Shown here one piece after another: positions 8,024-42,228 of a stretch of DNA of 64,000 nt. Position 1 is the first letter of the stretch. Every line of letters starts with the position of its first letter. Source of the DNA: a virus (Duplodnaviria > Caudoviricetes); the IMG/VR virus record IMGVR_UViG_3300016484_000881, positions 157 to 64,156 of that record; one strand, given 5' to 3'. The translations under genes were made by a program, and so were the position numbers. The notes beneath the pieces are model-generated. The model did no database searches. It was given only the letters and a program-made list of their open reading frames with translations, and was not told where the DNA came from.

Positions 8024-8203
8024 ATGAAAAATAAATCTATAGAGCATATTTTAGATTCAGCTCATCTTGATTTGAGTAGAGCTGGTTTTCTAATTGTGAT
8101 GATGATCATAAGAAGAAAATTGATTAAGTCTCATATTCAGGAGAGCATCAACAAACTTAGTTCAGCTCAAAAAACATTAGGAGAGCTCTATGATCGGTCC
8201 TAG
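8024..8203 (+). CDS. Small hypothetical protein (59 aa)
   Basis: Fills gap between helicase and RNR; translated by hand. Confidence 0.45.
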   Translation: MKNKSIEHILDSAHLDLSRAGFLIVMMIIRRKLIKSHIQESINKLSSAQKTLGELYDRS

Positions 8204-9986
8204 CATTGAAGCTTGTGATGAAGTCCATAAAGAGAAGTATCGTGGTCAGGGTGAAAATTTCAGAGAAGCGATGAATAGAATTTCAAGTGCTCTGCAAGAT
8301 GATCATGATCATTACATGGCATTTAGAAAAATTCTTCTCAACATGCGTTTTCTTCCTGCTGGAAGAGTTCAATCTTCAATTGGAAGTCTCAAAACCATTA
8401 CTCCATATAATTGTTTTGTCATGCCAACTATTCATGACAGTTTCACGGATGGCCCAACTGAAGAAGAACTGAAAAATCTGGCTGTTACAGATCATCCGCC
8501 ACTTTCCATTATGGACACTGCTAAGGCTGCCGCTATAACTATGCGTCAGGGTGGAGGTGTTGGGTATGACATCAGTACTCTTCGACCACGAGGGGATTAC
8601 ATTAAATCTGTTCAGTCCGTAACTGATGGACCAATGGCTTTCGCTCCAATCTACGATGCGGTTTGTCGTGCAACTTCATCAGCCGGGAATAGACGTGGCG
8701 CACAGATGCTTGTCATGCGTTGTGATCATCCGGACATTGAAATATTCATTCGAGCAAAACAATCTGAAAAGAATGTTCCGTATGATTATCGGCCACTGCG
8801 AGGTTTCAACATGAGTATCGCAGTAACAGATGCTCTTATGGAATGTTTACAAAGCGGAAAACCGTTTCCTCTCACGTTTTGTGGAAAAGTTTATAGAGAG
8901 GTTGACGCAGCAGCTCTCTGGGAAATGATCATGCGAGGAACCTATGATTGGGCAGAACCTGGAGTTTTGTTTATTGATACAATCAATAGGATGAACAATC
9001 TCTGGTATTGTGAAAAGATCGCTGCGACAAACCCATGTGGGGAACAACCTCTTCCTCCGTATGGCGCTTGTCTCCTTGGTTCTTGGAATCTCACGCAGTA
9101 TCTTAATGACGACAAAACTTTCAATTATGACCAGCTCATTGAAGATATTCCTCATGTTGTCAGAGCGATGGATAACATCGTAGATAGAGCAAGATATCCA
9201 TTGAAAGAACAGAAAAAAGAAGCTCAGACAAAAAGACGAATGGGTCTTGGTGTTACGGGACTTTCAAATTGCATTGAAGCCATGGGTGCTTTGTACGGAT
9301 CAATAGAATTCATAGAGCTTGAAGATAAAATTCTTAGGTTCATTACTAGGAATACCTATCTTGCCAGTGTTGATCTAGCCAAACAGAAAGGTCCTTTTGC
9401 TTATTTCGATCAAAAATATCTAAAGGGTGAATTTATCAAAACCCTTGATGAGGACGTTCAAGATCGGATCGGCAAGTACGGAATTCGTAATTCTCATTTG
9501 ACATCAATTGCTCCGACTGGTACTATCAGTTTCTGTGCAGATAATGTTTCTTCTGGAATTGAACCTGTCTTTGGTTACACACAGAAGAGGCGAGTTATCA
9601 TGGCTGACGGAGTTAAAATTGTCGACGTCCCGGATTACGGAGTTGGAACTTTAAAAGTTCACGGGAAAAGAGCTCAAGATGTAACTGCTAAAGAACATAT
9701 AGCAGTCCTTGCCACGGCCCAAAAGAACATAGACTCGTCTGTGAGTAAGACCTGTAATGTTCCAACGAACTATCCATATTCTGAGTTTAAAGATCTATAC
9801 ATCTCAGCCTTTGAACTAGGAGCGAAAGGTTGTACCACTTATCGCCCAAATGGAAATTATGACGAAGTCATAAAATCTGCTGATGAAAATACGGCTAACA
9901 ACGTTGAGAAAAAAGACATCTTAGAAGGTGAAGCTTGTTTCTTTGATCCAATCACTGGTCAGAGAACTGGAAATTGCGCAGAATAA
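8190..9986 (+). CDS. nrdJ: Ribonucleotide reductase, class II (adenosylcobalamin-dependent) type
   Basis: ATNPCGEQPL, RRMGLGVTGL, TSIAPTGTIS, KGCTTYR; no nrdB-like partner in window. Confidence 0.85.
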   Translation: MIGPSIEACDEVHKEKYRGQGENFREAMNRISSALQDDHDHYMAFRKILLNMRFLPAGRVQSSIGSLKTITPYNCFVMPTIHDSFTDGPTEEELKNLAVTDHPPLSIMDTAKAAAITMRQGGGVGYDISTLRPRGDYIKSVQSVTDGPMAFAPIYDAVCRATSSAGNRRGAQMLVMRCDHPDIEIFIRAKQSEKNVPYDYRPLRGFNMSIAVTDALMECLQSGKPFPLTFCGKVYREVDAAALWEMIMRGTYDWAEPGVLFIDTINRMNNLWYCEKIAATNPCGEQPLPPYGACLLGSWNLTQYLNDDKTFNYDQLIEDIPHVVRAMDNIVDRARYPLKEQKKEAQTKRRMGLGVTGLSNCIEAMGALYGSIEFIELEDKILRFITRNTYLASVDLAKQKGPFAYFDQKYLKGEFIKTLDEDVQDRIGKYGIRNSHLTSIAPTGTISFCADNVSSGIEPVFGYTQKRRVIMADGVKIVDVPDYGVGTLKVHGKRAQDVTAKEHIAVLATAQKNIDSSVSKTCNVPTNYPYSEFKDLYISAFELGAKGCTTYRPNGNYDEVIKSADENTANNVEKKDILEGEACFFDPITGQRTGNCAE

Positions 9987-10087: not shown

Positions 10088-10837
10088 ATGTCTGAACCTA
10101 TCAAGTCCGTTCTTTTTAGCGGCAAGACCTACTCAGAAGCTGATCTTGCTAAGATGCAGGAAAAAGATCTTCTTGAACTTCGCAATCTTGTGGCTGTGAA
10201 TCTTGGCGCATCAAAGATCAATGCTTTCAAGGATCTCGAAGCTGCAAAGAAGCTGACCTGGAGTGCTTTGGTCAAATTCGCAGAATCAAGCGATGACGAC
10301 CTTGCCTCGAAAGAAACCAAGGCGGAAGCTAAGGAAAAGAAGGCCAAAGAAAAGAAGGAGAAGGTTCCTCCTGGATATCTGAAGTCTATTGTTCCTAAGC
10401 GGCCGACCAAGAAGCAGTTCTCCAAGATCAAGAAGCTGCGTAACCCGGTTGAGGGCAGTGATCGCTCGTTCGCTTGGCCAGACTACAAAGATGGTATGAC
10501 AGTTCTTGACACCATGCTTGATCCGAAGTTGCATCACGACAAGGTCTATTGGTGGGCAAGCCGAAACCCTCCCTATATTCAGTTGATCGAGCCAACTGAA
10601 GAAGAGTACCAAGCGGCTCTTGCTAAGTTCTATAAGGATCAGGGTATCCAGGATCCAGCCGCAGAACGTAATGCCAAGAAGGCTGCTCGCGCTAAGGAGA
10701 AGGAAGAGAAGAAGGCAAAGCGCGAGGCTGAAAAGGCCGCAAAGAAGGCTGAAAAGGAAAAGGCTTCTGAAGAAGCTAAGGCAAAGCGCGAGGCTGAGGA
10801 AGCCAAGACTGCCAAGCCAGTTCCGTCTGCTGCCTAA
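10088..10837 (+). CDS. Hypothetical protein with Lys/Ala/Glu-rich low-complexity tracts (possible DNA-binding)
   Basis: RBS GGAG; AKKAA/EKAAKK repeats; central YKDGMTV domain. Confidence 0.7.
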   Translation: MSEPIKSVLFSGKTYSEADLAKMQEKDLLELRNLVAVNLGASKINAFKDLEAAKKLTWSALVKFAESSDDDLASKETKAEAKEKKAKEKKEKVPPGYLKSIVPKRPTKKQFSKIKKLRNPVEGSDRSFAWPDYKDGMTVLDTMLDPKLHHDKVYWWASRNPPYIQLIEPTEEEYQAALAKFYKDQGIQDPAAERNAKKAARAKEKEEKKAKREAEKAAKKAEKEKASEEAKAKREAEEAKTAKPVPSAA

Positions 10838-10847
10838 GAGCAGCAAG

Positions 10848-11762
10848 ATGAATGATCTGGTGAAAGCTGGAGAGTTCTTTTCGTTCATGTTAGAACGTGA
10901 ATTGATCCGTCTTCGAAAGAAGGCGGATCAACCGTTTCCATGGACTGAAGATTCAATTCTCCAAACATACAAATTCACGAATGTTCGCCGCTGGCATGAT
11001 CGCACGACGACATTTCTACGCGAGATTTTTTATTCCAAGCACGTGGATGCAGATCGCAAAGAGATTTTGATGAATTGTGCTCTGTTCCGCTATTTTGGGA
11101 CATCAGAGTTTGCTGACGTTATCGGCTGGCAGAAGTTTGATGATTTTAGGTTCCAGGACATTATAAACATTGCTCAGCAACGGCTCGCTGGTGGAAAACG
11201 TGTCTTCACTGGTGCCTACGTCATCACCAATCAAGGTATTAGTGCTCCCAAACAAGAAGTAGTAGTTAATCATTTCCTGAAAGCTCTCCATGAGAAAGCT
11301 CAAGAAATTTGTGAACTTGTTGAAACTGAAGGATCTTGGAAAAGAGTCGTTCAACTAATGTCATCGATCAACGGTTTTGGTGGCACAGGATTCATGGCGA
11401 AGGAAATTCTTCTTGATACTATGATGACGAATTTCTGGCTTGTGCCAGAAACTGAAGAACAGAAGTTCTTTGAAGGATGCAAAGTTTCTTATCCAGTAGA
11501 CTATGACACTTGGACTCCGATTGGTCCAGGAGGACTCCGTGGTGCAGCTCGCATCCTTGGGCATAACGACCCAGAAGGTGTCCTTAAGCAAGACAAGGCA
11601 CTGGAAGTTATCTTGAAATTAGCAGACAAACAAGGGTTGTTCTGGCCATCTATCTATGGTAAGTTATATCCAACTGATTTGCAATTTCAGCTTTGTGAAT
11701 TTGACAAGTACGAAAGAGTTCGTCTTGGACAGGGAAGACCACGTTCTAAATATCAGCGATAG
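10848..11762 (+). CDS. 5-hmdU DNA kinase-like protein (aGPT-Pplase1 / HMUDK helical domain)
   Basis: WTEDSILQTYKFTNVRR and CEFDKYERVRLGQGRPR motifs; GPGGLRG; neighbours dUMP hydroxymethylase; start at ATG 10848. Confidence 0.8.
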   Translation: MNDLVKAGEFFSFMLERELIRLRKKADQPFPWTEDSILQTYKFTNVRRWHDRTTTFLREIFYSKHVDADRKEILMNCALFRYFGTSEFADVIGWQKFDDFRFQDIINIAQQRLAGGKRVFTGAYVITNQGISAPKQEVVVNHFLKALHEKAQEICELVETEGSWKRVVQLMSSINGFGGTGFMAKEILLDTMMTNFWLVPETEEQKFFEGCKVSYPVDYDTWTPIGPGGLRGAARILGHNDPEGVLKQDKALEVILKLADKQGLFWPSIYGKLYPTDLQFQLCEFDKYERVRLGQGRPRSKYQR

Positions 11763-11773
11763 GGAATAACTCA

Positions 11774-13027
11774 ATGAAGATCTGTATTGCACTTCACCAG
11801 TGCATGGACCTTGGTGGAATTATAAATCACACAGAAAATTTGATTGCTGGACTTGCTCATCTTGGTCATGATGTCCATTTACGAGAAATGGTTTGGAAAG
11901 AAAAAGTTCAAGATCAGCGGAAATCAGGTGATGATGAAAGTGTAACTGGAATCTTTTTCAATCAAGGAAATGGTTGGTGTTTTCCAGAGCACATGAGAAT
12001 TCCGTACAAAGGATCTAGACTAAACTCTGCAGTTCAGAAGTTGCGAGCTTATGATCTTGTGATTTGGACTATCCCGGTTCCACCAAAAAACAAAGACAAC
12101 ATTGGGAACACTGATTGGATTCATCTTCATGATCTTCCAAGCACGAAGCAGATTGCTTTTTCTCATGATGGAAACGCTTCTGTGAATTATCCCCATATTC
12201 TAGCAATTTCAGAAAAGCTCGATGGTCTGGCTTGTGTTCATCACTGTGCGCTCAACACTTGTGAATTTGTTCCAGTACCAAGAGCACTGATTCTAAATCC
12301 ACAAAAAGATCCCGATAGACACATTCCGGACTACTCAGACAGAATGAAAGGATGGGTTTCAGCGCAGACGTTTAAGGCTTGGAAGAGAGTTCATGAGCTT
12401 GTCGGTGCGGTTCGCTTTATGCCAAAAATAGGTCCAGATGAACGTCGACTTCTAATAGGCAAAGGCATTGAATATCAGTACATGACCTCTGAAGATAAAT
12501 GCAAGGATGCCTACTATCATGCAGATGGTGCCAAGTTTTGGGAAGCTGCAATCGCTAACGGCATGGAACATGAAGAGTATCAACCGTACGAAATAATTGA
12601 AGAGCTTTTCAGTAGCACGCTGACTGTTGTTGATCCAAGTTGGTCAAAGCGGTACTCATCTATGGGAGGTCATTACAATCGTGTCGTTGTTGAAGCAATG
12701 ATTAATGGTGCTGTTCCAATCGCTAGGAAGATGGGTATGGGAAATGAAATCTTCGAAGCTGGGAGGAACTATGTTGAAATTCCTGAAGGTGCTGATCATC
12801 ATCAGTACGCTGATGGAGTAATGGAAGCGTCTTTTATGTCGAGGAGAAAATGGGAAGAGTTTACAAAGAATAACCTTGAAGTTGTGAAGCAATTTGATAG
12901 AACTAAAATTGCGCAACAGGTGATAGATCTAGCTTATGGCAATATTCCAACTCTAACTGGATTTCCAAGCAAGAGCCTCTCAGAGAAATCCTCAGTCATT
13001 CTTTCTGATCATTATGGAGTTATCTAA
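11774..13027 (+). CDS. GT-B fold glycosyltransferase, probably acting on DNA or a nucleotide
   Basis: N-terminal GGIINHTENL...LGHDV and C-terminal VVVEAMINGAVPI motifs. Confidence 0.75.
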   Translation: MKICIALHQCMDLGGIINHTENLIAGLAHLGHDVHLREMVWKEKVQDQRKSGDDESVTGIFFNQGNGWCFPEHMRIPYKGSRLNSAVQKLRAYDLVIWTIPVPPKNKDNIGNTDWIHLHDLPSTKQIAFSHDGNASVNYPHILAISEKLDGLACVHHCALNTCEFVPVPRALILNPQKDPDRHIPDYSDRMKGWVSAQTFKAWKRVHELVGAVRFMPKIGPDERRLLIGKGIEYQYMTSEDKCKDAYYHADGAKFWEAAIANGMEHEEYQPYEIIEELFSSTLTVVDPSWSKRYSSMGGHYNRVVVEAMINGAVPIARKMGMGNEIFEAGRNYVEIPEGADHHQYADGVMEASFMSRRKWEEFTKNNLEVVKQFDRTKIAQQVIDLAYGNIPTLTGFPSKSLSEKSSVILSDHYGVI

Positions 13028-14106
13028 TGCGAGTCATTGAAGCAAGAAACGTTCATCAAGCTCTACCATTGGGCATGGGATTGTTGGTAGATCATGGAAT
13101 CTTTCGCGATAGCAGGAACGGTCAAGTTCTTGTTGCAGACGGTCCTGTGACCACTGTTTACGACAAGCCCAAGGAGAGGGTGATCTTCTGGCCTGAAAGA
13201 GACGCAAATCCATTCTTTCATTTCATGGAAGGATTGTGGATGCTCGCTGGGCGAAACGATGTGAAATGGATTTCTCAGTTCAGCTCAAACATCAAGAATT
13301 ACAGCGACGACAGGTTGACCTTTCATGGTGCCTACGGTCACAGATGGATCAATCACTTCAATAAGGAAGTGATTCTTGCAACCAAAGAGATTGATGGGGT
13401 TGCTGGTTCGACTTGGGTTCCATTCAATCAACTTGAAGCTATCGCTGAGATTCTGAAAAAGAACAAAGACGATCGTCGCGCTGTCCTTCAAATGTGGAAC
13501 GCCGAAGATGATCTTGGGAAAGAAGGTAAGGACTTCCCCTGTAATACACAGATCTACTTCAGTGTAGATGAAAAGAATCTTCTTAACATGAGCGTCTGTA
13601 ATCGTAGTAACGACATCATCTGGGGAGCGTATGGAGCGAATGCTGTTCACATGTCCATGCTTCAGGAATTTATGGCAGCCTGGATTGGGGTTGAAGTCGG
13701 TCGTTATTGGCAGATCAGCAATAACTATCATGCGTACACTGAAGTTTTTGAAAAGCATAAGAGTTTGATTTCAGATCGTCATATTGGTACGTTCGAAATA
13801 GATCCATATCAGTACGGACGCAAGGGAAGGCAAGCCGTCTCGCCGTTCCCAATGGTGAACAAGCCAGTTGATGTTTGGATGAGTGATCTAACTCTGTTCA
13901 TGGAACAAGGACCAGTGACTGGATTCAATGACGTATTCTTTCGTCGAGTAGTCAATCCAATCTGGAATTCGTGGTTTGCATATAAGAACAAAGAAAGCGG
14001 TAGTTATATTGAACAGGCTCTTGCTCATCTTGAAGGATGTGTGGCGACTGATTGGCAACTCGCTTGCAAAGAATGGCTTGAAAGAAGGAAGGATAAAAAT
14101 TCATGA
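13027..14106 (+). CDS. Thymidylate synthase-family dUMP hydroxymethylase
   Basis: DFPCN catalytic Cys; RSNDIIWGAYGAN with Asn (dU-specific position); RDANPFFH motif. Confidence 0.85.
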   Translation: MRVIEARNVHQALPLGMGLLVDHGIFRDSRNGQVLVADGPVTTVYDKPKERVIFWPERDANPFFHFMEGLWMLAGRNDVKWISQFSSNIKNYSDDRLTFHGAYGHRWINHFNKEVILATKEIDGVAGSTWVPFNQLEAIAEILKKNKDDRRAVLQMWNAEDDLGKEGKDFPCNTQIYFSVDEKNLLNMSVCNRSNDIIWGAYGANAVHMSMLQEFMAAWIGVEVGRYWQISNNYHAYTEVFEKHKSLISDRHIGTFEIDPYQYGRKGRQAVSPFPMVNKPVDVWMSDLTLFMEQGPVTGFNDVFFRRVVNPIWNSWFAYKNKESGSYIEQALAHLEGCVATDWQLACKEWLERRKDKNS

Positions 14107-14507
14107 AGATTTACATTGCTGCAAAATATGCTCGTAGGTACGAACTGAGATCTCTTGTTGAGAAATTGAAAGAAATCGGCCACGAAGTTACTTCTCAGTG
14201 GATTTACGATAGTGAACCAGAAAAAAGCATTAAAGAAGCTGCTGAGAGGGATATCAATGATGTTCTTGCTGCTGAATGTCTTGTTTTCATTGGTGAGCCT
14301 CAGGCTTCAGAGAATCGTGGTGGTGGTCGTTGGTTTGAATTTGGGTTTGCTTATGCTAAGGAGAAGAGGTGTATTGCAGTCTTGAGTATGGATCCATCCA
14401 AAGGTGGACACGACCATCTACCTATCGGTCATGAAAGCGTTTTTACTGCTCTTCTTTGTGTGGAGATAGTTCATAGCCAAGAAGAATTGTTAAGCAAACT
14501 TTCTTAG
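14103..14507 (+). CDS. Nucleoside 2-deoxyribosyltransferase-like protein
   Basis: KIYIAA, DINDVLAAECLV, EFGFAYA motifs. Confidence 0.65.
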   Translation: MKIYIAAKYARRYELRSLVEKLKEIGHEVTSQWIYDSEPEKSIKEAAERDINDVLAAECLVFIGEPQASENRGGGRWFEFGFAYAKEKRCIAVLSMDPSKGGHDHLPIGHESVFTALLCVEIVHSQEELLSKLS

Positions 14508-14511
14508 TCAA

Positions 14512-14599
14512 GGACGGGTGCTCGAGAGGTTAAAGAGGACAGACTGTAAATCTGTTGCACTTCGGTGCTACGAAGGTTCAAATCCTTCCCCGTCCACCA
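14512..14599 (+). tRNA. tRNA-Tyr(GUA)
   Basis: Acceptor GGACGGG/CCCGTCC + A + CCA; anticodon arm ACAGA-CTGTAAA-TCTGT; long variable arm GCACTTCGGTGC; T-arm GAAGG-TTCAAAT-CCTTC. Confidence 0.95.
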
Positions 14600-14611
14600 A
14601 AGGAGTTAAGC

Positions 14612-15163
14612 ATGAGTCATAACAGAGGTTGCTTTTTCTGTGGTCGCGATATATGGGAATATGATGGTTGTGATCATGGAGAGGACTGTGTCAAAAAGGA
14701 TTTTAGTAAAATGTTAGAGAAACCAATCAATACAGAATTTGTGAATGATCGTCAAGTTGGAGGAAACCACTACAAGACCTCTTATGAACATTGGGATTGG
14801 GTGATCGACAACAACATGGGATATCTTGAGGGTTGTGCAACGAAATACGTTTCTCGTTGGAGGAAGAAGAATGGTGTGCAAGATCTAGAAAAAGCTGCTC
14901 ACTACATTCAAAAAATAATTGAATCTTTTGAGAAAGGAAAATATCCCTCTGCTGATTCTCGAATCCGTGATCAGAATATTAAGGATAACGCTCTGAGATC
15001 AAATAAGTTTGACTTAGCAAATGAGCTGCAATACGAGGAAGGTCTTATTTGTTGGACACTTTCTAGTTGGCGAGAAATTGAATCCCTGCTGATTGCTCAG
15101 AAAATGGTGAATGCTTTGTTACAGACCGCAAGGGACGCCGCTGGTTTGCAAAGTAAGGGCTAG
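14612..15163 (+). CDS. DUF3310 (SaV-like, putative nucleotide kinase) protein
   Basis: QVGGNHY, YLEGCATKYVSRWRKKNGVQDLEKAAHY; RBS AAGGAG; track start 14555 falls inside the tRNA. Confidence 0.75.
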   Translation: MSHNRGCFFCGRDIWEYDGCDHGEDCVKKDFSKMLEKPINTEFVNDRQVGGNHYKTSYEHWDWVIDNNMGYLEGCATKYVSRWRKKNGVQDLEKAAHYIQKIIESFEKGKYPSADSRIRDQNIKDNALRSNKFDLANELQYEEGLICWTLSSWREIESLLIAQKMVNALLQTARDAAGLQSKG

Positions 15164-15302
15164 GCACCTATGCCCGGTGTGTGCTGGTTTTGCGCTTGTG
15201 GCGTGGCCGTAGGGCTTTGCAGCCCTGCCCTAGCCTAGTTGGTTAGTGGCAGCCACGCCGTAGCGCTCATTTTAATGGTTCTGTAAAAAGGAATAAAGTA
15301 GA

Positions 15303-17366
15303 ATGGCAATTCGGAAGAAAACTGATGTGAATAAAGGCGGATCAGTTCAAATGAGTTTCTTCATACCAGAATGCAACTGGAAGCCTACTCCTGTTTCTGA
15401 GCTTCCTTCCTGGGTTGGTGCGAAAAGAATTTCCATAGATTGTGAAACGAAAGATCTCGATCTCAAAGATCTCGGTCCAGGCCCAAGGAGAGGTGGATAC
15501 ACTACCGGGTGGGCGTTCAAAATTGAAGATGGACCGAAGCACTATCTGCCAATGAGGCATGAAGGCGGAGACAACCTTCCTGAAGAAGAGGTTCTTCGAT
15601 ATCTTCGACATAATCTGAAAAATTTTTCTGGAGAGATTGTTGGTGCCAACCTTTCCTATGATATTGATTATGCTGCCACTGATAATATCAAGTTTCACCC
15701 TGAAGTTAAGTTCAGGGATATTCAGATCGCAGATCCTCTTATTTATGAGCTACACAGATCATATTCTTTGAAGGAAATTGGCAATAGATGGGGAGTTCAA
15801 GGCAAAGAAAGTTCTATCATGGAACAGGCTGCTCGTGCAACTGGTCTTGATCCGTGGGCTGGTATGTGGCGTCTTCCTGCTAGATACGTTGGTGAATATG
15901 CAGAAAACGATGTTGACGCTCCATTGAAAATTTATGAGAAACAGCGTGAAAGAATTTCGAAAGAAGAACTTTGGAAAGTTTTTGATTTAGAAAGTAAGCT
16001 TCTTCCAATTCTTGTGAAAATGCGTCAGAGAGGGATACGCATTGATTTTAAGAAACTGGAAGAAATTGAGCGCTGGTCTTTGAAAGAAGAAACTGAATCT
16101 CTTCAACTGGTTAAGCTTCAAACAGGAGTTAGAGTAGAAGTTGGTGAAGTTTGGAAACCAAAGATCATTGCTAGAGCATTAACAGAAATTGGAGTTCGAC
16201 TAGGAAAAACAACAACTGGAGCTCCACAAATTGACAAAGAACTATTAGAAGGTCTTGATCACCCTGTTGCAAAAGCTATTCTTCATGCAAGAAAAGTTAA
16301 TAAAATAAGAACGACATTTGCAGCATCAATTCGTCGTTATTCAACTAACGGAAGAATACACTGCACTTTCAACCAAATAGCGAGGGAAGATGAATCTGGA
16401 GATCAGAAAGGCGTAAGATACGGCCGACTTTCAGCAACTGATCCTAATCTTCAACAACAGCCTTCTATGGATAGAGATCCAATGATTGCTGGAGAATGGA
16501 GAAAGATTTTTCTTGCAGAAGAAGGTGCTGTTTTCGGAGTAAACGACTTTTCCCAACAGGAACCTAGGTGGACAACTCACTTCGCGGCCTTGCTGAATTT
16601 ACCAAAAGCCCAGGAAGCTGCAAGGAGATACCGAGACAATCCTCTAACCGATAATCATGAGATGATGACTCGTCTAATTCACGGTGATGAACAGGTTGAT
16701 GCATGGAAGACAAATGATCCGAAACTCTTTAAAGTTAATCGCGGTTATTCGAAAAACATTTTCCTTGGACTCTGCTATGGAGAAGGAGGCGCAAAACTCT
16801 GTCAGGACATTGGTAAACCTACTCGTTGGGCACTTATTAAGGGATTTGGCACCAGTAAAGAAGTCTCTTATTTTGAAACACGAACAGAGGCTTGGCGGCG
16901 TCGATCAGAAGACGGCATTGGTACGATTCGAGAAGTCGCAGGTCTCGAAGGCCAAAATATTCTCGACAGGTTCGATGAGGAGGTTCCGTATGTTAGGGCC
17001 GTCGCGAGAGCGGCGAGTGCGAGGGCAGAATCAGTAGGATATGTTAAAACCATAGCGGGACGTCGTCTTCACTTTGAACAAAGACCGGATGGTAGCTATG
17101 ATTGGACTCACAAAACACTGAACCGAGTAATTCAGGGTTCATCCGCAGATCAAACAAAACAAGCAGTCATCGATATGGATGAAGCGGGGTATTTTATTCA
17201 ATTGCAAGTTCATGATGAAAATGACGGAAGTTACGCGACGGTCGCTGATGCAAAAGCTGCCGGGCAAATCATGAGAGAATCAGTTTTGAAAATTGTCCAA
17301 CCCTTGGTTCCATTCGTTGTTGACACAGAAGTTGGCCCATCTTGGGGAGAATTGAAGGCAGCATGA
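15303..17366 (+). CDS. DNA polymerase family A with 3'-5' exonuclease domain
   Basis: IDCET exonuclease motif; GRLSATDPNLQQ, DFSQQEPR, KNIFLGLCYG, QVHDE. Confidence 0.95.
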   Translation: MAIRKKTDVNKGGSVQMSFFIPECNWKPTPVSELPSWVGAKRISIDCETKDLDLKDLGPGPRRGGYTTGWAFKIEDGPKHYLPMRHEGGDNLPEEEVLRYLRHNLKNFSGEIVGANLSYDIDYAATDNIKFHPEVKFRDIQIADPLIYELHRSYSLKEIGNRWGVQGKESSIMEQAARATGLDPWAGMWRLPARYVGEYAENDVDAPLKIYEKQRERISKEELWKVFDLESKLLPILVKMRQRGIRIDFKKLEEIERWSLKEETESLQLVKLQTGVRVEVGEVWKPKIIARALTEIGVRLGKTTTGAPQIDKELLEGLDHPVAKAILHARKVNKIRTTFAASIRRYSTNGRIHCTFNQIAREDESGDQKGVRYGRLSATDPNLQQQPSMDRDPMIAGEWRKIFLAEEGAVFGVNDFSQQEPRWTTHFAALLNLPKAQEAARRYRDNPLTDNHEMMTRLIHGDEQVDAWKTNDPKLFKVNRGYSKNIFLGLCYGEGGAKLCQDIGKPTRWALIKGFGTSKEVSYFETRTEAWRRRSEDGIGTIREVAGLEGQNILDRFDEEVPYVRAVARAASARAESVGYVKTIAGRRLHFEQRPDGSYDWTHKTLNRVIQGSSADQTKQAVIDMDEAGYFIQLQVHDENDGSYATVADAKAAGQIMRESVLKIVQPLVPFVVDTEVGPSWGELKAA

Positions 17367-18228: not shown

Positions 18229-18744
18229 ATGACAGATTTTGGTATTGAATCACTTCTAGAATTCAACAAAGCATTTAATGTTTTCACAGGAGACCCAGAT
18301 AAACCAGAAGTTCCTAAGTCAACTGATAGTCACACGAAAGCAGATCTTCGGAATTACACAGAACAAGCTGTGAAGTTCGGTAAAGAACTAAAGCAACTCG
18401 CGGCGAATGCAAAAGAACGTGGTGACGATAACGGAGCTCTTATTCTAATTCGTCTTCAACTCATCCAAGAAGAACTTTCTGAACTAGCAGAAGCTTTCTG
18501 TTTTGAATCGATAGTAGATTCTTACGATGCACTCGTTGATTTGAGCTATGTCGTAGATGGAACGTATCTCACTCTTGGGCTGCATAAAAAGAAACTTGCT
18601 GGATACACTGAAGTTCATCGTTCAAACATGAGTAAGTTAGACGACAACGGGAAACCAATAATTTCGAGTGCAGGTCGTGTAGTCAAAGGACCAAACTATA
18701 GCATACCGAGACTAGATCTTGTTTTAGAGGCAGACTATGATTAA
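18229..18744 (+). CDS. MazG-like all-alpha NTP pyrophosphohydrolase
   Basis: LIQEELSEL, DALVDLSYV, EVHRSNMSK, GRVVKGPNY. Confidence 0.85.
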   Translation: MTDFGIESLLEFNKAFNVFTGDPDKPEVPKSTDSHTKADLRNYTEQAVKFGKELKQLAANAKERGDDNGALILIRLQLIQEELSELAEAFCFESIVDSYDALVDLSYVVDGTYLTLGLHKKKLAGYTEVHRSNMSKLDDNGKPIISSAGRVVKGPNYSIPRLDLVLEADYD

Positions 18745-18796: not shown

Positions 18797-19300
18797 ATGA
18801 GCATACTCAGTGCACAGACTATTCGTCACAAGTGCCAATACGAAAGTCTCATTCTTCCTTTCTGTGAAAGAACCGCATTTATGGGACTTTCATTTGGGTT
18901 GAGCCCTTGTGGTTACGACGTTCGAGTTGAGTTTGACAAAGAGGGAAAGCTAGAATACCAGATCATGTATCCTGGAGCTTTTCTTCTTGCTTCGACGATT
19001 GAACGTTTCAGAATGCCGAAGAATCTCGTTGGTTTTGTTCATGACAAGTCAACTTGGGCCAGACGAGGAATTGCAGTTCAGAATACAGTCATTGAACCCG
19101 GATGGGAAGGATATCTAACTCTTGAACTCACGAATCATGGTTCAAAAGGTATTCGTATTGATCGTGGTGTGGGAATTGCCCAAGTCGTATTTCATAAACT
19201 CGATGAAGACACAAATCAGCCCTATGAAGGTAAATATCAGACTCAGAGTAGAGGTCCTGTTAGAGCTCTAAAAAGTTTGACTGAAAGTCCTGACTTGTAA
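18797..19300 (+). CDS. dcd: dCTP deaminase
   Basis: GYDVR, DKSTWARRG, IEPGWEGYLTLE, IAQVVF, YEGKYQ. Confidence 0.9.
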   Translation: MSILSAQTIRHKCQYESLILPFCERTAFMGLSFGLSPCGYDVRVEFDKEGKLEYQIMYPGAFLLASTIERFRMPKNLVGFVHDKSTWARRGIAVQNTVIEPGWEGYLTLELTNHGSKGIRIDRGVGIAQVVFHKLDEDTNQPYEGKYQTQSRGPVRALKSLTESPDL

Positions 19301-19332: not shown

Positions 19333-19746
19333 ATGAGTGAAGCTACAATGCGCTCCAACCTTGTCAAAGCGTTGGAAAAATTAGATGCTGTCCCAATTGA
19401 AATGCGCATGAGAGCTGGAACTCCAGATGTGAACTATATTGGAGGATGGATAGAATGCAAGTATTTGAAATTTTGGCCCAAGAACGCCGATACCTCTCCA
19501 GTGATCTTCGGTCACGAACTAACGAAAGAGCAGGGTTTGTGGGGCCGGAGAAGATGTCTCAGAGGTGGATCATCTTGGGTGGTCGCCCAAGTTTCTAGAG
19601 ACTGGTTCTGGTTCAGCACTATTGTGGCAAGAGAGAACTTCAATAAGATGACAAGACCAGATATGCACAGTCTCTGTGCATTTCACCAGAAAAATCTGAA
19701 GTCTGAGGAACTGGTCGAGTGGTTGATAAATAATTCTAGGGGTTGA
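19333..19746 (+). CDS. PD-(D/E)xK nuclease / Holliday junction resolvase-like
   Basis: GTPDV...WIECK motif, LTKEQ. Confidence 0.7.
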   Translation: MSEATMRSNLVKALEKLDAVPIEMRMRAGTPDVNYIGGWIECKYLKFWPKNADTSPVIFGHELTKEQGLWGRRRCLRGGSSWVVAQVSRDWFWFSTIVARENFNKMTRPDMHSLCAFHQKNLKSEELVEWLINNSRG

Positions 19747-26238: not shown

Positions 26239-27159
26239 ATGAATATCACAGAGAAATATCGCCCGAAATCCCTCGATGAAGTTCTTGGACAGCCACAAGT
26301 AACAAAGAGTCTGAAATCTATCATCGAAGAAAAGAAACATTCCAGCTTCATCTTCGAAGGACCATCAGGAACTGGAAAGACGACTGTCGCCCGAATAGTG
26401 GCTAAGATGCTTGGAGCGAGTGGTATGGATATTGAAGAATTCGATGCGTCCACAAATTCAGGTGTGGATGATATGCGGTTACTTGCGGAAAGACAGTGTG
26501 TGTTCCCAATGAGTGGTGCACGAGTATTCATCGTTGATGAATGTCAGCGTCTTTCAAAAAATGCCTGGGATGCTCTTCTCAAATCGATTGAATCTCCTCC
26601 AGTAAGCAATTACTGGATTTTCTGTACGACTGAAATCAGCAAGGTTCCAGCGACAATCAAAACTCGTTGTCTTCATTACAAGTTCAAGGCCGTTACTCCG
26701 GTAGAAATGATTCCTCACTTGAAAAGTATTAGGGAATTAGAAAAATTCTCTATAAGTGATGAGCTTATTGAAAAGATTGCTTCCTCAGTTGGTGGAAGTC
26801 CGAGAGCAGCTATACTTCGGCTTGAGCAAGTGAACGGGCTATCATCTGAAGAAGTAGAAGCACTGCTCAGTGTAGAACAAGGAATTCCAGGAGGTTATGA
26901 ACTCGCAAAACTCTTGAATGATTCAGCATTTAATGTATCAGAAGTAATGTCTTTACTGAAAACTCTAAAAGATGAAAATGCAGAGGGAATTCGTCAAATC
27001 GTCAGAGCGTATTTCACAACCGTTTTGATGAACTCACCAAGTAAGCGTTGGCCGAAACTTGTTCTGGCTGCCTTTATTCAGCCATGCGTTGAACAGAACT
27101 ATGTGACTGACCTTGTGATGAAAGTAGTGACTTTGGAAAAGTGGAGGCAAGCACCTTGA
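26239..27159 (+). CDS. Clamp-loader / DnaX-like AAA+ ATPase
   Basis: EKYRPKSLDEVLGQ, GPSGTGKTT, IVDECQRL, TIKTRC. Confidence 0.88.
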   Translation: MNITEKYRPKSLDEVLGQPQVTKSLKSIIEEKKHSSFIFEGPSGTGKTTVARIVAKMLGASGMDIEEFDASTNSGVDDMRLLAERQCVFPMSGARVFIVDECQRLSKNAWDALLKSIESPPVSNYWIFCTTEISKVPATIKTRCLHYKFKAVTPVEMIPHLKSIRELEKFSISDELIEKIASSVGGSPRAAILRLEQVNGLSSEEVEALLSVEQGIPGGYELAKLLNDSAFNVSEVMSLLKTLKDENAEGIRQIVRAYFTTVLMNSPSKRWPKLVLAAFIQPCVEQNYVTDLVMKVVTLEKWRQAP

Positions 27160-27506
27160 TTTACCTTGTGTGTGGTGGAAGACAATACAAGAACAAGACA
27201 TTCATTTATGATGTTCTAACGAAAGCTCGTCTTAAAGATCTTGAATGTATTGTACACGGAGGGGCAGAAGGTGCTGATCAACTCGCTGGCCTCTGGGCTA
27301 TTGAAAATGGCATACCCGAAATCATTGTTCCAGCCGCCTGGAAATATTATGGCAGAGATGCTGGACCGATTCGCAATGGATGGATGCTGAAGTTCATAAA
27401 GATTGGGCATGTGATTGCTTTCCCAGGAGGACCTGGGACACAAAACATGATTCGTCGGGCTAGAATTCATGGAATACAAAATATCACACAATTTCAAAAT
27501 GACTAA
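27141..27506 (+). CDS. SLOG/YspA-like (DUF2493) protein
   Basis: LVCGGR, IVHGGAEGAD, AGPIRNGWML, AFPGGPGT. Confidence 0.8.
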   Translation: MEASTLIYLVCGGRQYKNKTFIYDVLTKARLKDLECIVHGGAEGADQLAGLWAIENGIPEIIVPAAWKYYGRDAGPIRNGWMLKFIKIGHVIAFPGGPGTQNMIRRARIHGIQNITQFQND

Positions 27507-30900: not shown

Positions 30901-31299
30901 ATGATCTATGACAAAGAATACGTTGCCAAGTGGCGCGAGAAAGCAATCACGAGGGTAGAAGATTTATCTGTTGGGATGAAAGTCTACTCAAACGGCTTCC
31001 CAAAAAAGTTCATAGTTAAAGAACTTATTACCGATGCTGAATCATACAGGAGAGACAATTTGTCCGCTAATGGTCGGGATGACACAGTTCCTTCTTGGGT
31101 TGTTTGTGAATGGGAGAGTGCTGAGTTCCGCTTGTGCCGTTCTACTATTGCCTTAGCAGATCACAATGTTGGAGATTCTTACAATCCGTGGTTGCTATTT
31201 CGCACAGAAGATGAGTGTGAGGAGTACAAAGCGGGTTTGAAGATTTCTCTGGAAAGCTATTACTTTACTGATGAACTCCAGAGATCTCTATGTGATTAG
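30901..31299 (+). CDS. Hypothetical protein
   Basis: RBS GGAG. Confidence 0.65.
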   Translation: MIYDKEYVAKWREKAITRVEDLSVGMKVYSNGFPKKFIVKELITDAESYRRDNLSANGRDDTVPSWVVCEWESAEFRLCRSTIALADHNVGDSYNPWLLFRTEDECEEYKAGLKISLESYYFTDELQRSLCD

Positions 31300-31305
31300 C
31301 TCGCC

Positions 31306-31578
31306 ATGACCAAGAAATGTTCAGCCAATAAGAAAGCTTTGACACCTGAACAGGTAATTGAAGCTCGCAACCATATGCAATCTGCCGCAAATTCGGCAAC
31401 AGCGTCTTTCTGGCGCTCCGATGAGCGAGGTATCGCAAATCCATTCCATGCCAAGATAATGCTGAGCAAACTAAATTCAGCTTGCAAGACACTTGGCTAT
31501 ACAATGACTCCATCACCCACAAAGAAGCCCACAAGTCGTGACTTAGACGACGAATTTTATGAAGAGGTTCCGTTCTAA
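31306..31578 (+). CDS. Hypothetical protein, paralogue of 33246-33464
   Basis: Shared EQ.I.A, SFWR and LGYTMTP.PT blocks. Confidence 0.7.
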   Translation: MTKKCSANKKALTPEQVIEARNHMQSAANSATASFWRSDERGIANPFHAKIMLSKLNSACKTLGYTMTPSPTKKPTSRDLDDEFYEEVPF

Positions 31579-31580
31579 TC

Positions 31581-32018
31581 ATGAGACAAGAAGAACTTGA
31601 CGCCATCAAGGCGCGCAATGCAGCCCGGACGCAGGGCGTGTGGATATATCGTCCAGACGAATACGATGATTGGGGGTCAGTCAGGCTTGATATAGCAAAC
31701 GCAGATGGGTTCCGGCGCGTTGTTTGCCGCGCCAGCTACGATGCGGAAAAAACAAGCGCCGAACTCGATGAATACCGTCGCCGCAAAGATGATCCCAGCA
31801 AAGGCAATGGCCAGTTCATCGCCCACGCCAGCACTGACATTCCGGCCCTTATCGCTGCCCTTGAAGCATCACAAGAACGAGTGAAGGCACTGGAAGAAGC
31901 GTTGAAGCCCTTCGCTGATGGATACGCCATGGCGTGTCGTGAAGGCGTTTCAATTCGGGATGTGATTGGTTTGTCTGACCTTCGCCGCGCCAAAACAGCA
32001 CTGGACGCCACCCCATGA
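31581..32018 (+). CDS. Ead/Ea22-like hypothetical protein
   Basis: ELDAIKAR...FIAHASTDIPALIAALE pattern. Confidence 0.55.
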   Translation: MRQEELDAIKARNAARTQGVWIYRPDEYDDWGSVRLDIANADGFRRVVCRASYDAEKTSAELDEYRRRKDDPSKGNGQFIAHASTDIPALIAALEASQERVKALEEALKPFADGYAMACREGVSIRDVIGLSDLRRAKTALDATP

Positions 32019-32386
32019 CCACACACCACACACCGACGCCTTGGCGCACAGTTGTACTGAAAGACAAGCGCCATCGCATGACTGTCATTATGGCGGGGGG
32101 CAGCTTTGACAAAGCGGTGCAGGTCGGGTGCTGTTACGCAAACCACGTTTCGCACGAAGAAGCAGCCGCCAACGCTGCCTTTATCGTCCGTGCCGTCAAC
32201 TCTCATGACGCGCTGGTTGAGGCCTTGGGGCCAACTCTCAACGCCAAGTCGCTTAAGCTGGTCACTGAGCACGTGGAAGTGTTTAGGGCGATGGGGGATA
32301 TTGGCTTGGCCATTGCACTTGAAATGCTGCTCAAAAACCACGCCAAGCGCGTTGCCGCTCTCGCTCTTGCCAAGGGAGAGAAGTGA
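32015..32386 (+). CDS. Hypothetical protein
   Basis: HTPTPW...ANAAFIVRAVNSHDALVEAL, common phage motif. Confidence 0.7.
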   Translation: MTTHHTPTPWRTVVLKDKRHRMTVIMAGGSFDKAVQVGCCYANHVSHEEAAANAAFIVRAVNSHDALVEALGPTLNAKSLKLVTEHVEVFRAMGDIGLAIALEMLLKNHAKRVAALALAKGEK

Positions 32387-32634
32387 TGGCCGCTATCACA
32401 TATCACGACGCCACGCGCGTTTTCCGGGTGATGGGCCATGTTGTTGGCTGGACATGCGAGCCGGACGGCGGGTGGGCGTTTCAACTGTTCGGGCTTGGCG
32501 TTTGGCGGATGAGCCGTGACGAACCTGTCGGCTGGACGATTGGTCCGTTTGTGACCCGAAACAATGGTCTCACCGCCACGTGTTCAATCTCATTCATCCC
32601 CGCTTGGCACAATCTTTTGAAAGCAAAACTATGA
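32383..32634 (+). CDS. Hypothetical protein
   Basis: Overlap-coupled ORF. Confidence 0.55.
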   Translation: MMAAITYHDATRVFRVMGHVVGWTCEPDGGWAFQLFGLGVWRMSRDEPVGWTIGPFVTRNNGLTATCSISFIPAWHNLLKAKL

Positions 32635-32837
32635 CGAATATCCCGATATGGAAAATTGCAGGCCTCAACATTCGCACCCGCGAGCGGCGCGGATACGTCA
32701 AGGAAGTTCAGGGCTACACATCGTGGACTGAATACCAAGTGATCAAGGGGCGCACCATATTGCAGCGCTTTGACACCATGGAAGCGGCTGAACGGTTTGC
32801 GACCGAGCGCGTCGGCGGCGTGTGGAGGAAACCATGA
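32631..32837 (+). CDS. Hypothetical protein
   Basis: ATGA overlap at 32631. Confidence 0.55.
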   Translation: MTNIPIWKIAGLNIRTRERRGYVKEVQGYTSWTEYQVIKGRTILQRFDTMEAAERFATERVGGVWRKP

Positions 32838-33013
32838 CACCCACCGACAAACTCGAACTGGCAACCGTTCTGGAAAACATCCGCACGTCATTCCTGCGCA
32901 TGACAGACCATGAACAGCGCATTGAACAGATCGCCCGCTCTCTCACAACCCCTCCTGTCATTGAAGGTGGACCATGGGACGGCAGGGCAGAACTCAGGGA
33001 GATAGCGAAATGA
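32834..33013 (+). CDS. Hypothetical protein
   Basis: RBS GGAGG, ATGA overlap. Confidence 0.6.
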   Translation: MTPTDKLELATVLENIRTSFLRMTDHEQRIEQIARSLTTPPVIEGGPWDGRAELREIAK

Positions 33014-33249
33014 GCGACAAGATTAAAGTCAACATTTATTCGGCGGGGCCACTTTTTATCTCTGCATCCCCAGATGAGTTTGGCCGAGTTTTTTCTGCGA
33101 TGTCGTCTGTCGATCAGGTGAACGTTCTCCGATCAATGATCAAACACATGGAACCTCACAAAACGCAGTGGGACTATATTTCAATTGAACTGGACCGCCC
33201 TGAAAACGCTGATGTGTTGCACGCTTTTCGGCAAATGGTGCAATCATGA
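33010..33249 (+). CDS. Hypothetical protein
   Basis: ATGA overlap. Confidence 0.6.
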   Translation: MSDKIKVNIYSAGPLFISASPDEFGRVFSAMSSVDQVNVLRSMIKHMEPHKTQWDYISIELDRPENADVLHAFRQMVQS

Positions 33250-33464
33250 TCACGCGGGAACAAGCGATCAAAGCTCAGCTTGAATTGGACGAAGCCAGCA
33301 AAGCAGCACTGCTTTCTTTTTGGCGCACAGAAACGACCGGGAACGAAATGCACGACCCCGCCAACAGATATCACTCAACAAAGCTCTTTGAGAGCCTCTC
33401 CAAGGCTCTCGCCGTCCTTGGCTACACAATGACGCCAGCGCCTACACAAGAGGCGCAGCCATGA
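33246..33464 (+). CDS. Hypothetical protein, paralogue of 31306-31578
   Basis: Shared SFWR and LGYTMTP.PT blocks. Confidence 0.65.
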   Translation: MITREQAIKAQLELDEASKAALLSFWRTETTGNEMHDPANRYHSTKLFESLSKALAVLGYTMTPAPTQEAQP

Positions 33465-33522
33465 GCGCCCGCATGTCAATCCCTGACTGGTGTGACGAAA
33501 TCCCTTTTGACAACGGAGCAAG

Positions 33523-33837
33523 GTGATGAATGAAGTAACGCAGATTGATACCGGGGCAACACTGGTAACACCCGTCGCAAATACTCCCATGGCCATCATT
33601 GAACGGGCCATCGCGTCCGGCGCATCACCAGAAACGCTTTCCAAGCTCATGGACCTGCAAGAGCGCGACAGGGCAAGGGCGGATGCACTGGAAGAAGCGG
33701 CCCTTGTGATTGAGAACGGGCAAGAATGCTACCATTCCGAAGATCAGTCCTACCATATTGAACCGCGAGGTTCCGGAAACCAGATCGGATTGGCGTACGT
33801 CACAGCCATCCGTGCATTGAAGGACGCCAAGCCATGA
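33523..33837 (+). CDS. Hypothetical protein
   Basis: MAIIERAIASGAS...LSKLMDLQER N-terminus resembles ERF-family leader helices. Confidence 0.55.
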   Translation: MMNEVTQIDTGATLVTPVANTPMAIIERAIASGASPETLSKLMDLQERDRARADALEEAALVIENGQECYHSEDQSYHIEPRGSGNQIGLAYVTAIRALKDAKP

Positions 33838-34513: not shown

Positions 34514-34689
34514 CCATGCTGGACAAAATGAACGAAGCTATCGAACACGACACAAAGGATGACGCGACACCAGACTGGGCGATATGGAAGGGCGAAGGCC
34601 CGGCTCCCGCGTATTGGTACGCCGTCAATCCAGACACCAAGGAGCACACGAAAGTCTATCGCAGTTACGAGGACTACGTGGACGACTGA
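34510..34689 (+). CDS. Hypothetical protein
   Basis: GTGA overlap, RBS GGGAG. Confidence 0.55.
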   Translation: MTMLDKMNEAIEHDTKDDATPDWAIWKGEGPAPAYWYAVNPDTKEHTKVYRSYEDYVDD

Positions 34690-42212: not shown

Positions 42213-42228
42213 CACCGCACAACACTAG

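Follow-up and report, generated by a model that had tools for sequence, protein, structure and literature searches.

A candidate gene cluster for glycosylated 5-hydroxymethyluracil without 5-hmdU DNA kinase and amino acid:DNA transferase in a marine relative of Pseudomonas phage M6

Organization of the modification cluster

Which base does a phage put into its DNA, and by which route, if it combines a predicted dUMP hydroxymethylase with a glycosyltransferase? This question is raised by a gene cluster at positions 10848 to 15163 of a 64,000-bp stretch of viral DNA (the window), which lacks only 156 bases of the 64,156-bp record IMGVR_UViG_3300016484_000881. The record represents the complete genome of a marine phage that is related to Pseudomonas phage M6 and has not been cultivated. 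Every gene named in a preliminary description of the cluster was found, on the plus strand, at the position given for it there. The gene association itself is known, having already been noted in metagenome surveys.

The upstream edge of the conserved block is formed by a ribonucleotide reductase gene (8190..9986; PF02867, E 2.2e-103), which is found in the equivalent place in relatives. A conserved gene for a hypothetical Lys/Glu-rich protein of 249 amino acids (10088..10837) lies directly upstream of the gene for a PF18723 protein (10848..11762; ‘HMUDK_hel’ or aGPT-Pplase clade 1, E 6.8e-36), and in this lineage always adjoins it on that side. Then follow the genes for a GT-B glycosyltransferase of 417 amino acids (11774..13027), a thymidylate-synthase homologue predicted to convert dUMP to 5-hmdUMP (13027..14106; E 3.5e-21), a nucleoside 2-deoxyribosyltransferase-family protein (14103..14507), a tRNA-Tyr with the anticodon GTA detected by ARAGORN (14512..14599), which probably is not a component of the pathway, and a DUF3310 protein homologous to M6 gp61 (14612..15163; PF11753, E 3.6e-7). 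Further downstream, also on the plus strand, are genes for a family A DNA polymerase (15303..17366; PF00476 plus exonuclease domain, 49% identity to M6 gp62), a MazG-like nucleotide pyrophosphohydrolase (18229..18744; PF01503, E 6.2e-6; PHROG E 4.8e-26), and a dCTP deaminase/dUTPase-family protein (18797..19300; PF22769, E 5.5e-23; PHROG dCTP deaminase, E 2e-54).

We consider it probable that thymine is replaced in two stages, 5-hmdU being formed before replication and then directly O-glycosylated on the DNA, without a phosphate step, so that the final substituent is a sugar instead of an amino acid.

The glycosyltransferase and its counterparts in related phages

Sequence matches of the glycosyltransferase to the Pfam families GT1 and GT4 were weak and below the cut-off. 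The AF2 model of the protein showed a confident GT-B fold (pLDDT 91.4) with T4 DNA alpha-glucosyltransferase (AGT) as top structural matches, the sequence identity to AGT being only 11-13%. SP-15 glycosyltransferases were among the nearest viral structural neighbors, and profile comparisons with T4 beta-GT and RB69 gp47 gave no significant sequence match. We propose that the protein is a DNA 5-hmdU glycosyltransferase of the retaining type with a host-supplied nucleotide sugar as donor. A retaining GT-B enzyme would predict an alpha linkage, in contrast to the beta linkage of base J.

The slot between the PF18723 gene and the gene for the synthase homologue contained a glycosyltransferase gene in 59 of 68 related loci, a count that is no unbiased frequency, as the loci were gathered by peptide patterns of this lineage and include some duplicates. 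The glycosyltransferases of the slot had two unrelated folds, GT-B or the TET-associated GT-A (TAGT, PF20691), and were often accompanied by genes for an NDP-sugar epimerase, FkbM methyltransferases, and radical SAM-SPASM proteins. An M6-like kinase was present in one of the 68 loci and an amino acid:DNA transferase (AADT) in none. In the relatives with the most similar backbone (PolA 74-75% identical), an epimerase and a TAGT gene replace the GT-B gene of the window, indicating interchangeable cassettes. The triad of PF18723, GT-B, and synthase homologue was still intact at 28-40% PF18723 identity. Contigs of this group number in the hundreds and are about 60-65 kb long, and the earlier caveat that relatives may have similar glycosyltransferases was correct, as hundreds carry them. 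A megablast search with the cluster and a tblastn search with the glycosyltransferase against 50,697 phage records both returned no match, so that no cultured phage can be named as a carrier of this enzyme.

The structural similarity to T4 alpha-glucosyltransferase and the filling of the slot by glycosyltransferases in the related loci make a sugar derivative of 5-hmdU the most likely product. It is unlikely that the enzyme instead targets a phage protein or a polymer of the host envelope, which would leave the virion DNA with plain 5-hmdU or with a modification for which the PF18723 protein alone is responsible. The gene lies within the replication module, between those of the hydroxymethylase and its PF18723 partner, and its surroundings show neither a signal peptide nor a membrane context. 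Moreover, the slot is occupied in relatives by sugar-tailoring genes and by the TET-associated family of DNA glycosyltransferases, and an equivalent adjacency exists in T4, where b-gt adjoins the dCMP hydroxymethylase gene 42.

Absence of a 5-hmdU DNA kinase and of an amino acid:DNA transferase

The preliminary description presumed that 5-hmdU is first phosphorylated and called the protein encoded at 10848..11762 ‘HMUDK-like’. This label is wrong, because PF18723 denotes only the helical accessory domain, the kinase being PF18748. In M6, the kinase is gp54 (PF18748) and the PF18723 homologue is gp55, which shares 27% identity with the protein of the window and aligns with it over the full length. 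Six-frame searches of the whole 64,156-bp genome gave no match to PF18748, the P-loop 5-hmdU DNA kinase family, at E ≤ 10 and no match to PF18724 (AADT, aGPT-Pplase clade 2) at E ≤ 1. Identical searches recovered PF18748 in M6 and PF18724 in M6, Epa5, and nACB2; the genes around the PF18723 gene of nACB2 provided no usable ViI-type kinase query. A tblastn search of the genome with M6 gp54 returned P-loop noise only. No small Walker-A protein was found in any frame, the only five Walker-A proteins of the genome being of helicase, AAA+, or terminase type. In the complete genome there was also no six-frame match to Nmad5, to TAGT (PF20691, the GT-A enzymes of the TAGT/JGT family), or, at E ≤ 1, to the TET/JBP thymine dioxygenase family Tet_JBP (PF12851), and Pfam scans of about 70 ORFs revealed no PLP, radical-SAM, or kinase enzymes.

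Of the M6/ViI-type pathway, the phage thus has the hydroxymethylase and a nearby PF18723 gene, and it lacks the P-loop kinase and the AADT. The reported lack of an AADT and of PLP, radical-SAM, or other M6/ViI-type tailoring enzymes thereby extends to the whole genome. The absence of both kinase and AADT argues for a route without phosphorylated intermediate, and of the two products suggested earlier, a sugar or a phospho-sugar derivative of 5-hmdU, the latter has no enzymatic basis here, since no kinase was found.

A phosphate step could persist if an unrecognized kinase, e.g., the DUF3310 protein or the 249-aa protein, phosphorylated 5-hmdU or the attached sugar. The PHROG families matched by the DUF3310 protein are labeled nucleotide kinase, phosphate is part of SP-15-type thymine modifications (PMC12686479), and SP10 gp186 is a fusion of PF18723 with a kinase (PMC5889632). 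We nevertheless regard this explanation as improbable, given the absence of PF18748 and of a small P-loop protein. M6 has gp61 besides the true kinase gp54, which indicates that the DUF3310 protein is not the DNA kinase. The 249-aa protein was rejected as the missing kinase, because a BLASTP comparison with M6 gp54 gave an E-value of 18 and the sequence has no Walker A or other nucleotide-binding motif; it had no match in Pfam and PHROG, and an Atlas search returned only viral hypothetical proteins. A divergent kinase without P-loop in this genome is possible.

The PF18723 protein

To our knowledge, the PF18723 protein is conserved across every known thymidine-hypermodifying phage, and its gene has stayed next to the hydroxymethylase gene both in phages of the kinase type and in those of the glycosyltransferase type. 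The structural model of the protein showed a helix-hairpin-helix DNA-glycosylase fold, for which the amino acid:DNA transferase of PaMx11 was the best PDB match. A sequence search against the PDB gave noise only, and a profile comparison with the M6 AADT (hhalign) yielded a probability of 0.3% and no significant sequence match. PF18725 was rejected as a third aGPT-Pplase family, as it is a HEPN family.

An alternative is that the PF18723 protein is itself an AADT-like group-transfer enzyme using another nucleophile, with the glycosyltransferase merely decorating its product or supplying a leaving group. This is as improbable as a phosphate step, since homology to the AADT is lacking at the profile level, reconstitution in lysates did not require M6 gp55, which is thus unnecessary for the transfer (PMC8989533), and no activated substrate is known without a kinase. 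The protein is not a kinase, and we rather conjecture that it acts as a partner that recognizes 5-hmU and flips the base. A more far-reaching and rather doubtful idea is that PF18723 proteins are general 5-hmU readers and base-flippers whose partner transferase is exchangeable, being a kinase in M6-like phages and a glycosyltransferase of GT-A or GT-B type in the marine lineage, and may set the sequence context of the modification; the striking TC/GA-free islands of the genome would then be regulatory DNA kept without the modified context.

The synthase homologue and the identity of the base

The synthase homologue shares 47.5% of its residues with M6 gp58, and M6 DNA derives from 5-hmdU (PMC8989533). 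The best PDB sequence match of the homologue was the CMP hydroxymethylase MilA. In the alignment, the equivalents of Cys146 (PCNT), Asp169 (RSND motif), and Asn177 (E. coli ThyA numbering) are all retained, which upholds the previous assignment to the Asn type and indicates a uracil-type enzyme. 5-Hydroxy-dCMP synthases carry the signature D169N, as in RB69, DLP3, and RL38J1, which glycosylate 5-hydroxycytosine, use dCMP as substrate, and have the gene order small kinase, glycosyltransferase, synthase homologue (PMC13326640). This gene order, with a GT-B gene beside that of a thymidylate-synthase homologue as in the window, led us to consider a 5-hydroxy-dCMP synthase, which was rejected because Asp169 (motif R-S-N-D) and Asn177 are kept; the glycosyltransferase of the window showed no sequence relation to those of RB69-type clusters. 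Despite the matching order and a specificity deduced from the alignment only, it is thus very improbable that the enzyme is a conventional thymidylate synthase or produces a different base, with an acceptor other than 5-hmdU, as both residues are conserved, the identity to the M6 enzyme is 47%, the best PDB relatives are hydroxymethylases, and the nearby gene encodes a dCTP deaminase, with no dCTPase/dCMP supply route.

Nucleotide-pool enzymes and proposed pathway

As judged from family membership, the genome contains a pre-replicative hydroxymethylase together with a pool-shaping set of dCTP deaminase-like, MazG-like, and deoxyribosyltransferase-like proteins. The latter reached 28.2 bits with PF05014 (E 2.2e-6), just below the cut-off of 28.8, and had an Atlas feature score of 0.95 and TM-scores of 0.77-0.83 to NDT-family clusters. 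Its gene takes the position of an HD/YfbR-like (HD 5′-deoxynucleotidase) gene in relatives and in M6 (gp59), and its proposed role is the clearing of competing dNMP. The DUF3310 protein probably starts at the ATG at 14612, since a longer ORF call overlaps the tRNA gene. It shows 34% identity to M6 gp61; with T7 gp1.7 there was only a short motif match (E 0.044), so that the nucleotide-kinase label remains a lead, and a weak one, to a possible dNMP kinase for 5-hmdUMP.

In the first stage of the pathway that we favor, i.e., direct glycosylation of 5-hmdU on DNA, the dCTP deaminase/dUTPase-like protein, as supplier of dU nucleotides, and the MazG-like protein, through pool control, would push the nucleotide pool toward dUMP, which the synthase homologue would convert to 5-hydroxymethyl-dUMP. 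The deoxyribosyltransferase-family protein perhaps removes competing dNMP as a substitute for the HD nucleotidase of the relatives, and the DUF3310 protein might aid the conversion of 5-hmdUMP to the triphosphate, from which the family A polymerase would write 5-hmdU into the phage DNA. In the second stage, as suggested by the protein fold and by comparison of the gene context, a host nucleotide sugar would serve the GT-B enzyme as donor for direct glycosylation of the 5-hydroxymethyl oxygen, in parallel to the T4 glucosyltransferases acting on 5-hmC and the base J glucosyltransferase acting on 5-hmU. The least certain step is that of the PF18723 protein, which as a DNA-glycosylase-like relative of the AADT may recognize or flip out 5-hmU and assist whichever transferase is present.

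Comparison with known systems

M6 and PaMx11 (Mesyanzhinovviridae) share with the window ribonucleotide reductase, PF18723 protein, hydroxymethylase, DUF3310 protein, PolA, and a gp66 homologue in a syntenic replication module, and the large terminases of M6 and the window are 58% identical. A 5-hmdU precursor can be deduced for both, but only M6 has the kinase gp54, the AADT gp51, the PLP enzyme gp52, the radical SAM protein gp53, and Nmad5 (gp56), the last of which occupies the slot filled by GT-B in the window. T4 likewise uses a hydroxymethylase of the thymidylate synthase family before replication and then a GT-B enzyme on DNA, as predicted from the genes of the window. However, the acceptor base is cytosine-derived in T4 and uracil-derived in the window (Asn177 type), and T4 has no PF18723 partner. 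A glycosyl-oxymethyl-uracil in DNA, as predicted here, is also the product class of kinetoplastid base J (JBP and JGT) and of phage TAGT, and sister phages of the window have TAGT in the very slot of its GT-B. In base J, 5-hmU is formed on DNA by a TET/JBP dioxygenase and not, as predicted for the window, from dUMP before replication, and the glycosyltransferase of the base J/TAGT systems is GT-A, not GT-B; the genome contains neither such a dioxygenase nor such a GT-A enzyme. SP-15, YerA41, and Carin-5 carry sugars on the C5 substituent of thymine, as would the predicted base. These phages have large genomes and polymerases fused to UDG, and they attach several sugars through a pentyl-type linker with phosphate (PMC13697223, PMC12686479), whereas the window has one glycosyltransferase, an ordinary PolA, and no genes for sugar nucleotides.

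If correct, the proposed pathway would give a widespread marine phage group glycosylated 5-hydroxymethyluracil, a modification class known from base J of trypanosomes; base J-like DNA is so far undemonstrated in any virus or phage. The modification would arise from a minimal gene set that is easy to reconstitute. DNA of this kind would be refractory to many restriction enzymes, and standard sequencing may under-represent it. The PF18723 protein is now separated from the kinase whose name the family bears, and the cluster, having neither kinase nor AADT, offers a clean system for its function. The exchange between GT-A and GT-B cassettes in a single slot represents a natural experiment in DNA glycan diversification.

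With respect to sequence composition, the genome contains five TC/GA-free gaps of at least 120 bp, compared to 1.4e-5 expected. One of them precedes the polymerase gene and is conserved in relatives.

Synteny with phage M6 and the predicted dUMP hydroxymethylase

The window comprises the whole 64,156-bp IMG/VR virus record, which was rated complete by CheckV, minus 156 bases, and nearly all genes are located on the + strand. The large terminase shows 58% identity to that of the M6/PAE1-type Pseudomonas siphoviruses (Mesyanzhinovviridae), and portal, capsid, tail-tube, and tape-measure genes make up the structural module. Searches by tblastn with the proteins of the M6 replication module revealed that the window is syntenic with this module, with counterparts of gp55 (10839-11753, 27% identity), gp58 (13027-14091, 47%), gp61 (14741-15121, 34%), the polymerase gp62 (15357-17348, 49%), and gp66 (19333-19731, 32%). 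The gene coordinates of the preliminary description were correct, and the genes listed there were confirmed by Pfam and, in the case of tRNA-Tyr (14512-14599), by ARAGORN.

The thymidylate-synthase homologue (13027-14106, +) shows 47-49% full-length identity to its counterparts in M6, YuA, Epa5, and related phages. When it was aligned to solved thymidylate synthases, the catalytic Cys was in a P-C-N-T motif, followed by R-S-N-D ... G ... N. In the E. coli ThyA numbering customary for the family (see also PMC13326640), we take the latter residues to be the equivalents of Arg166, Ser167, Asp169, Gly173, and Asn177. Asn177 is the mark of uracil specificity, and the CMP hydroxymethylase MilA has an Asp in this alignment column. 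At position 169, Asn is reported for 5-hydroxy-dCMP synthases (PMC13326640); the protein of the window retains Asp there. Because of the uracil-type Asn177 equivalent and the retained Asp169, the protein is best read, on the basis of its sequence, as a dUMP hydroxymethylase like that of M6. The dCTP deaminase-like protein and the MazG-like protein are consistent with a route that supplies dUMP.

The gene following that of the synthase homologue encodes a member of the nucleoside 2-deoxyribosyltransferase family. Since the relatives and M6 have an HD 5′-deoxynucleotidase in the same place, a similar purpose is suggested for it, namely clearing of unwanted dNMP. The DUF3310 protein matches PHROGs labeled as nucleotide kinase and has only a short motif in common with T7 gp1.7. 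Within 14555-14611, the longest ORF call of the DUF3310 gene has a TTG start that lies inside the tRNA-Tyr gene; the first ATG past tRNA-Tyr is at 14612 and gives a 183-aa protein.

No 5-hmdU DNA kinase or amino acid:DNA transferase found

The ORF 10848-11762 (+) had been labeled HMUDK-like, which was wrong: its product aligns end to end with M6 gp55 and a kinase domain is absent. The family concerned, PF18723, is named HMUDK_hel, for the helical domain of 5-hmdU DNA kinase. When the M6 proteins were scanned for families, gp54, the experimentally proven kinase, matched PF18748, gp55 matched PF18723, and gp51, the amino acid:DNA transferase (AADT), matched PF18724. N-alpha-glycinylthymidine is made by gp54 and gp51 alone, gp55 being dispensable (PMC8989533). 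In SP10 gp186, the N-terminal half is the kinase and the C-terminal half the PF18723 domain (PMC5889632).

Six-frame searches of the whole genome gave no match to PF18748 at E ≤ 10 and none to PF18724 at E ≤ 1, the latter in agreement with the absence of an AADT claimed before. These negative results are meaningful, because the identical tool recovered both families in M6, and PF18724 also in Epa5 and nACB2. Nmad5, Tet_JBP, and the TET-associated GT-A glycosyltransferase TAGT (PF20691) were not found in the six frames of the whole genome either. In a scan of all frames, the Walker-A motif occurred in no more than five proteins: the terminase, a RecD-like helicase, a primase-helicase, and two AAA proteins, one of which is a clamp-loader-like AAA+ protein. 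Among about 70 ORFs scanned with Pfam, there was no PLP enzyme and no radical SAM enzyme, as already noted in the preliminary description, and no acetyltransferase or nucleotide kinase family. The position of the kinase in M6 is taken by a 249-aa ORF (10088-10837, +) directly upstream of the PF18723 gene, which is Lys/Glu-rich and has neither a P-loop nor any family match. A 140-177-bp run at its 3′ end (10669-10848) lacks AC/GT or AT dinucleotides; it is low-complexity sequence coding for the Lys/Glu/Ala-rich tail and no separate element.

The structural model of the PF18723 protein was confident (pLDDT 91.2). In an exhaustive comparison with 48,161 PDB chains the best match was the PaMx11 AADT, and further down the list the scores fell to less than 4; Foldseek again placed this protein first, albeit weakly. 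Profile comparison with the M6 AADT revealed only a G-F-G motif in common. Near its C terminus, the PF18723 family contains the invariant block C-E-x-D-K-Y; for AADT, Cys247 and Asp175 have been reported to contact the pocket into which the target base is flipped (PMC11472151). PF18723 is present in 452 phage records, and in the records and loci examined its gene adjoins or lies near the hydroxymethylase gene. From this proximity and its retention here without the kinase, we infer that the protein acts on 5-hmU in DNA in a manner common to all these pathways.

The glycosyltransferase and its exchange in related loci

The gene between the PF18723 and synthase genes (11774-13027, +) encodes a 417-aa glycosyltransferase with weak sequence matches: GT1/GT4 Pfam hits remained below the cut-off, and profile searching of the PDB reached no better than E 0.003, for the glycogen-synthase domain of a GPCR fusion chimera, followed by glycogen synthase itself (E 0.006). 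The AlphaFold model, based on an alignment of 30 homologues, was confident (pLDDT 91.4, pTM 0.89), and with it Foldseek matched GT-B enzymes by the hundreds. T4 DNA alpha-glucosyltransferase was the top structural match of the model; because the margin was small, this likeness is a lead rather than proof. With hhalign, a local match to the T4 alpha-glucosyltransferase was obtained (E 0.0011, 53 columns) and none to the T4 beta-glucosyltransferase or RB69 gp47. Two SP-15 glycosyltransferases are among the neighbors in viral models, as are proteins with the annotation DNA alpha-glucosyltransferase. At E ≤ 0.001, the family numbers 330 members, many of them on contigs of 59-66 kb including marine metagenome and Tara records, and its alignment contains about 90 invariant columns.

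The comparative set consisted of 77 IMG/VR loci that encode a relative of PF18723; their ORFs were classified and unassigned ones checked with Pfam. The gene order helicase, ribonucleotide reductase, 224-256-aa protein, PF18723, glycosyltransferase, synthase homologue, HD nucleotidase-like, DUF3310, and PolA is kept in the relatives. PF18723 lies upstream of the synthase gene in 68 loci, a lineage-biased set including duplicates, so that the counts hold for this lineage rather than for phages in general. A glycosyltransferase is present in the slot between these two genes in 59 of the 68 loci, being of the GT-B type of the window in 36 and the unrelated TAGT in 23. An M6-like kinase occupies the slot once and an AADT was found in none of these loci. 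The companions, in various combinations, are an NAD-dependent sugar epimerase/dehydratase, FkbM-type methyltransferases, radical SAM-SPASM proteins, and a second GT4-like gene. The closest backbone relatives (identities of 62-63% for PF18723, 63-65% for the synthase, and 74-75% for PolA) have an epimerase and TAGT in the slot. Among the IMG/VR loci, the GT-B carriers are more distant from the window (PolA ≤ 66%); there is one closer GT-B carrier, L092, whose glycosyltransferase is 65% identical. The triad of PF18723, GT-B, and synthase is kept down to 28-40% PF18723 identity. Glycosyltransferases of two unrelated folds thus substitute for one another in a single slot with constant neighbors on either side, which argues for a shared function of both on the product of the flanking genes.

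Radical SAM-SPASM and FkbM-type methyltransferase genes were found in the slot of relatives (loci L018:7595-8677, L064:567-1574, L060:2425-3384, L049:6863-7540, and L086:8086-11482), in some cases with no glycosyltransferase present and in others as a four-enzyme cassette (TAGT, radical SAM, methyltransferase, and GT4-like). This slot content suggests more elaborate or different 5-hmU derivatives in these relatives.

Relation to known hypermodification systems

Apart from the misnamed gene, the initial observation of a hypermodification cluster is real. The final base had been proposed to be a sugar or phospho-sugar derivative of 5-hmdU; the comparative evidence strengthened the sugar part, and the phosphate part was dropped. 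We consider it rather probable that 5-hmdU is glycosylated directly. The system in the window would be a combination of M6-type precursor synthesis with glycosylation of the T4/base J type.

Parts of this combination have precedents. HTVC023P-type pelagiphages pair thymidylate synthase with aG/PT-PPlase1, in some cases alongside a 5′-deoxynucleotidase and a putative glucosyltransferase (PMC9599517), and GT-B-like genes in metaviromes are often close to thymidylate-synthase homologues (preprint 10.1101/2023.12.21.572611). Phage thymine dioxygenases are linked with glycosyltransferases (PMC13229309), and SP-15, YerA41, and Carin-5 have glycosylated thymine derivatives with a linker (PMC13697223, PMC12686479). 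Our literature search, which was incomplete, retrieved neither a published demonstration that the 5-hmdU of phage DNA directly bears a sugar nor a published mention of the absence of the kinase from these clusters.

Further sequence features

Five stretches of 133-290 bp lack TC or GA (41713-42002, 42121-42284, 2115-2258, 50657-50790, and 15135-15267). TC/GA ranks second in frequency among the complementary pairs (15.6%), and 1.4e-5 gaps of 120 bp or longer would be expected. Many relatives share the island directly upstream of the polymerase gene, with a length of 116-144 bp; the M6 and Epa5 loci lack it. A link of the islands to the sequence context of DNA modification is possible.

The phage, predicted to hold little or no thymine, encodes a pyrimidine-dimer DNA glycosylase of the T4 endonuclease V type (37722-38087; PF03013, E 5e-14). 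A small SLOG-family protein (YAcAr, PF10686, E 1e-13) is encoded at 27141-27506, adjoining a clamp-loader-like AAA+ gene. The G+C content reaches 54.5% at 32-34 kb compared to about 41-45% in the rest of the window, and this peak coincides with the sole minus-strand ORF block (31265-32891) and several ORFs without family match. The high-G+C region (31265-36000) may be a recently acquired segment.
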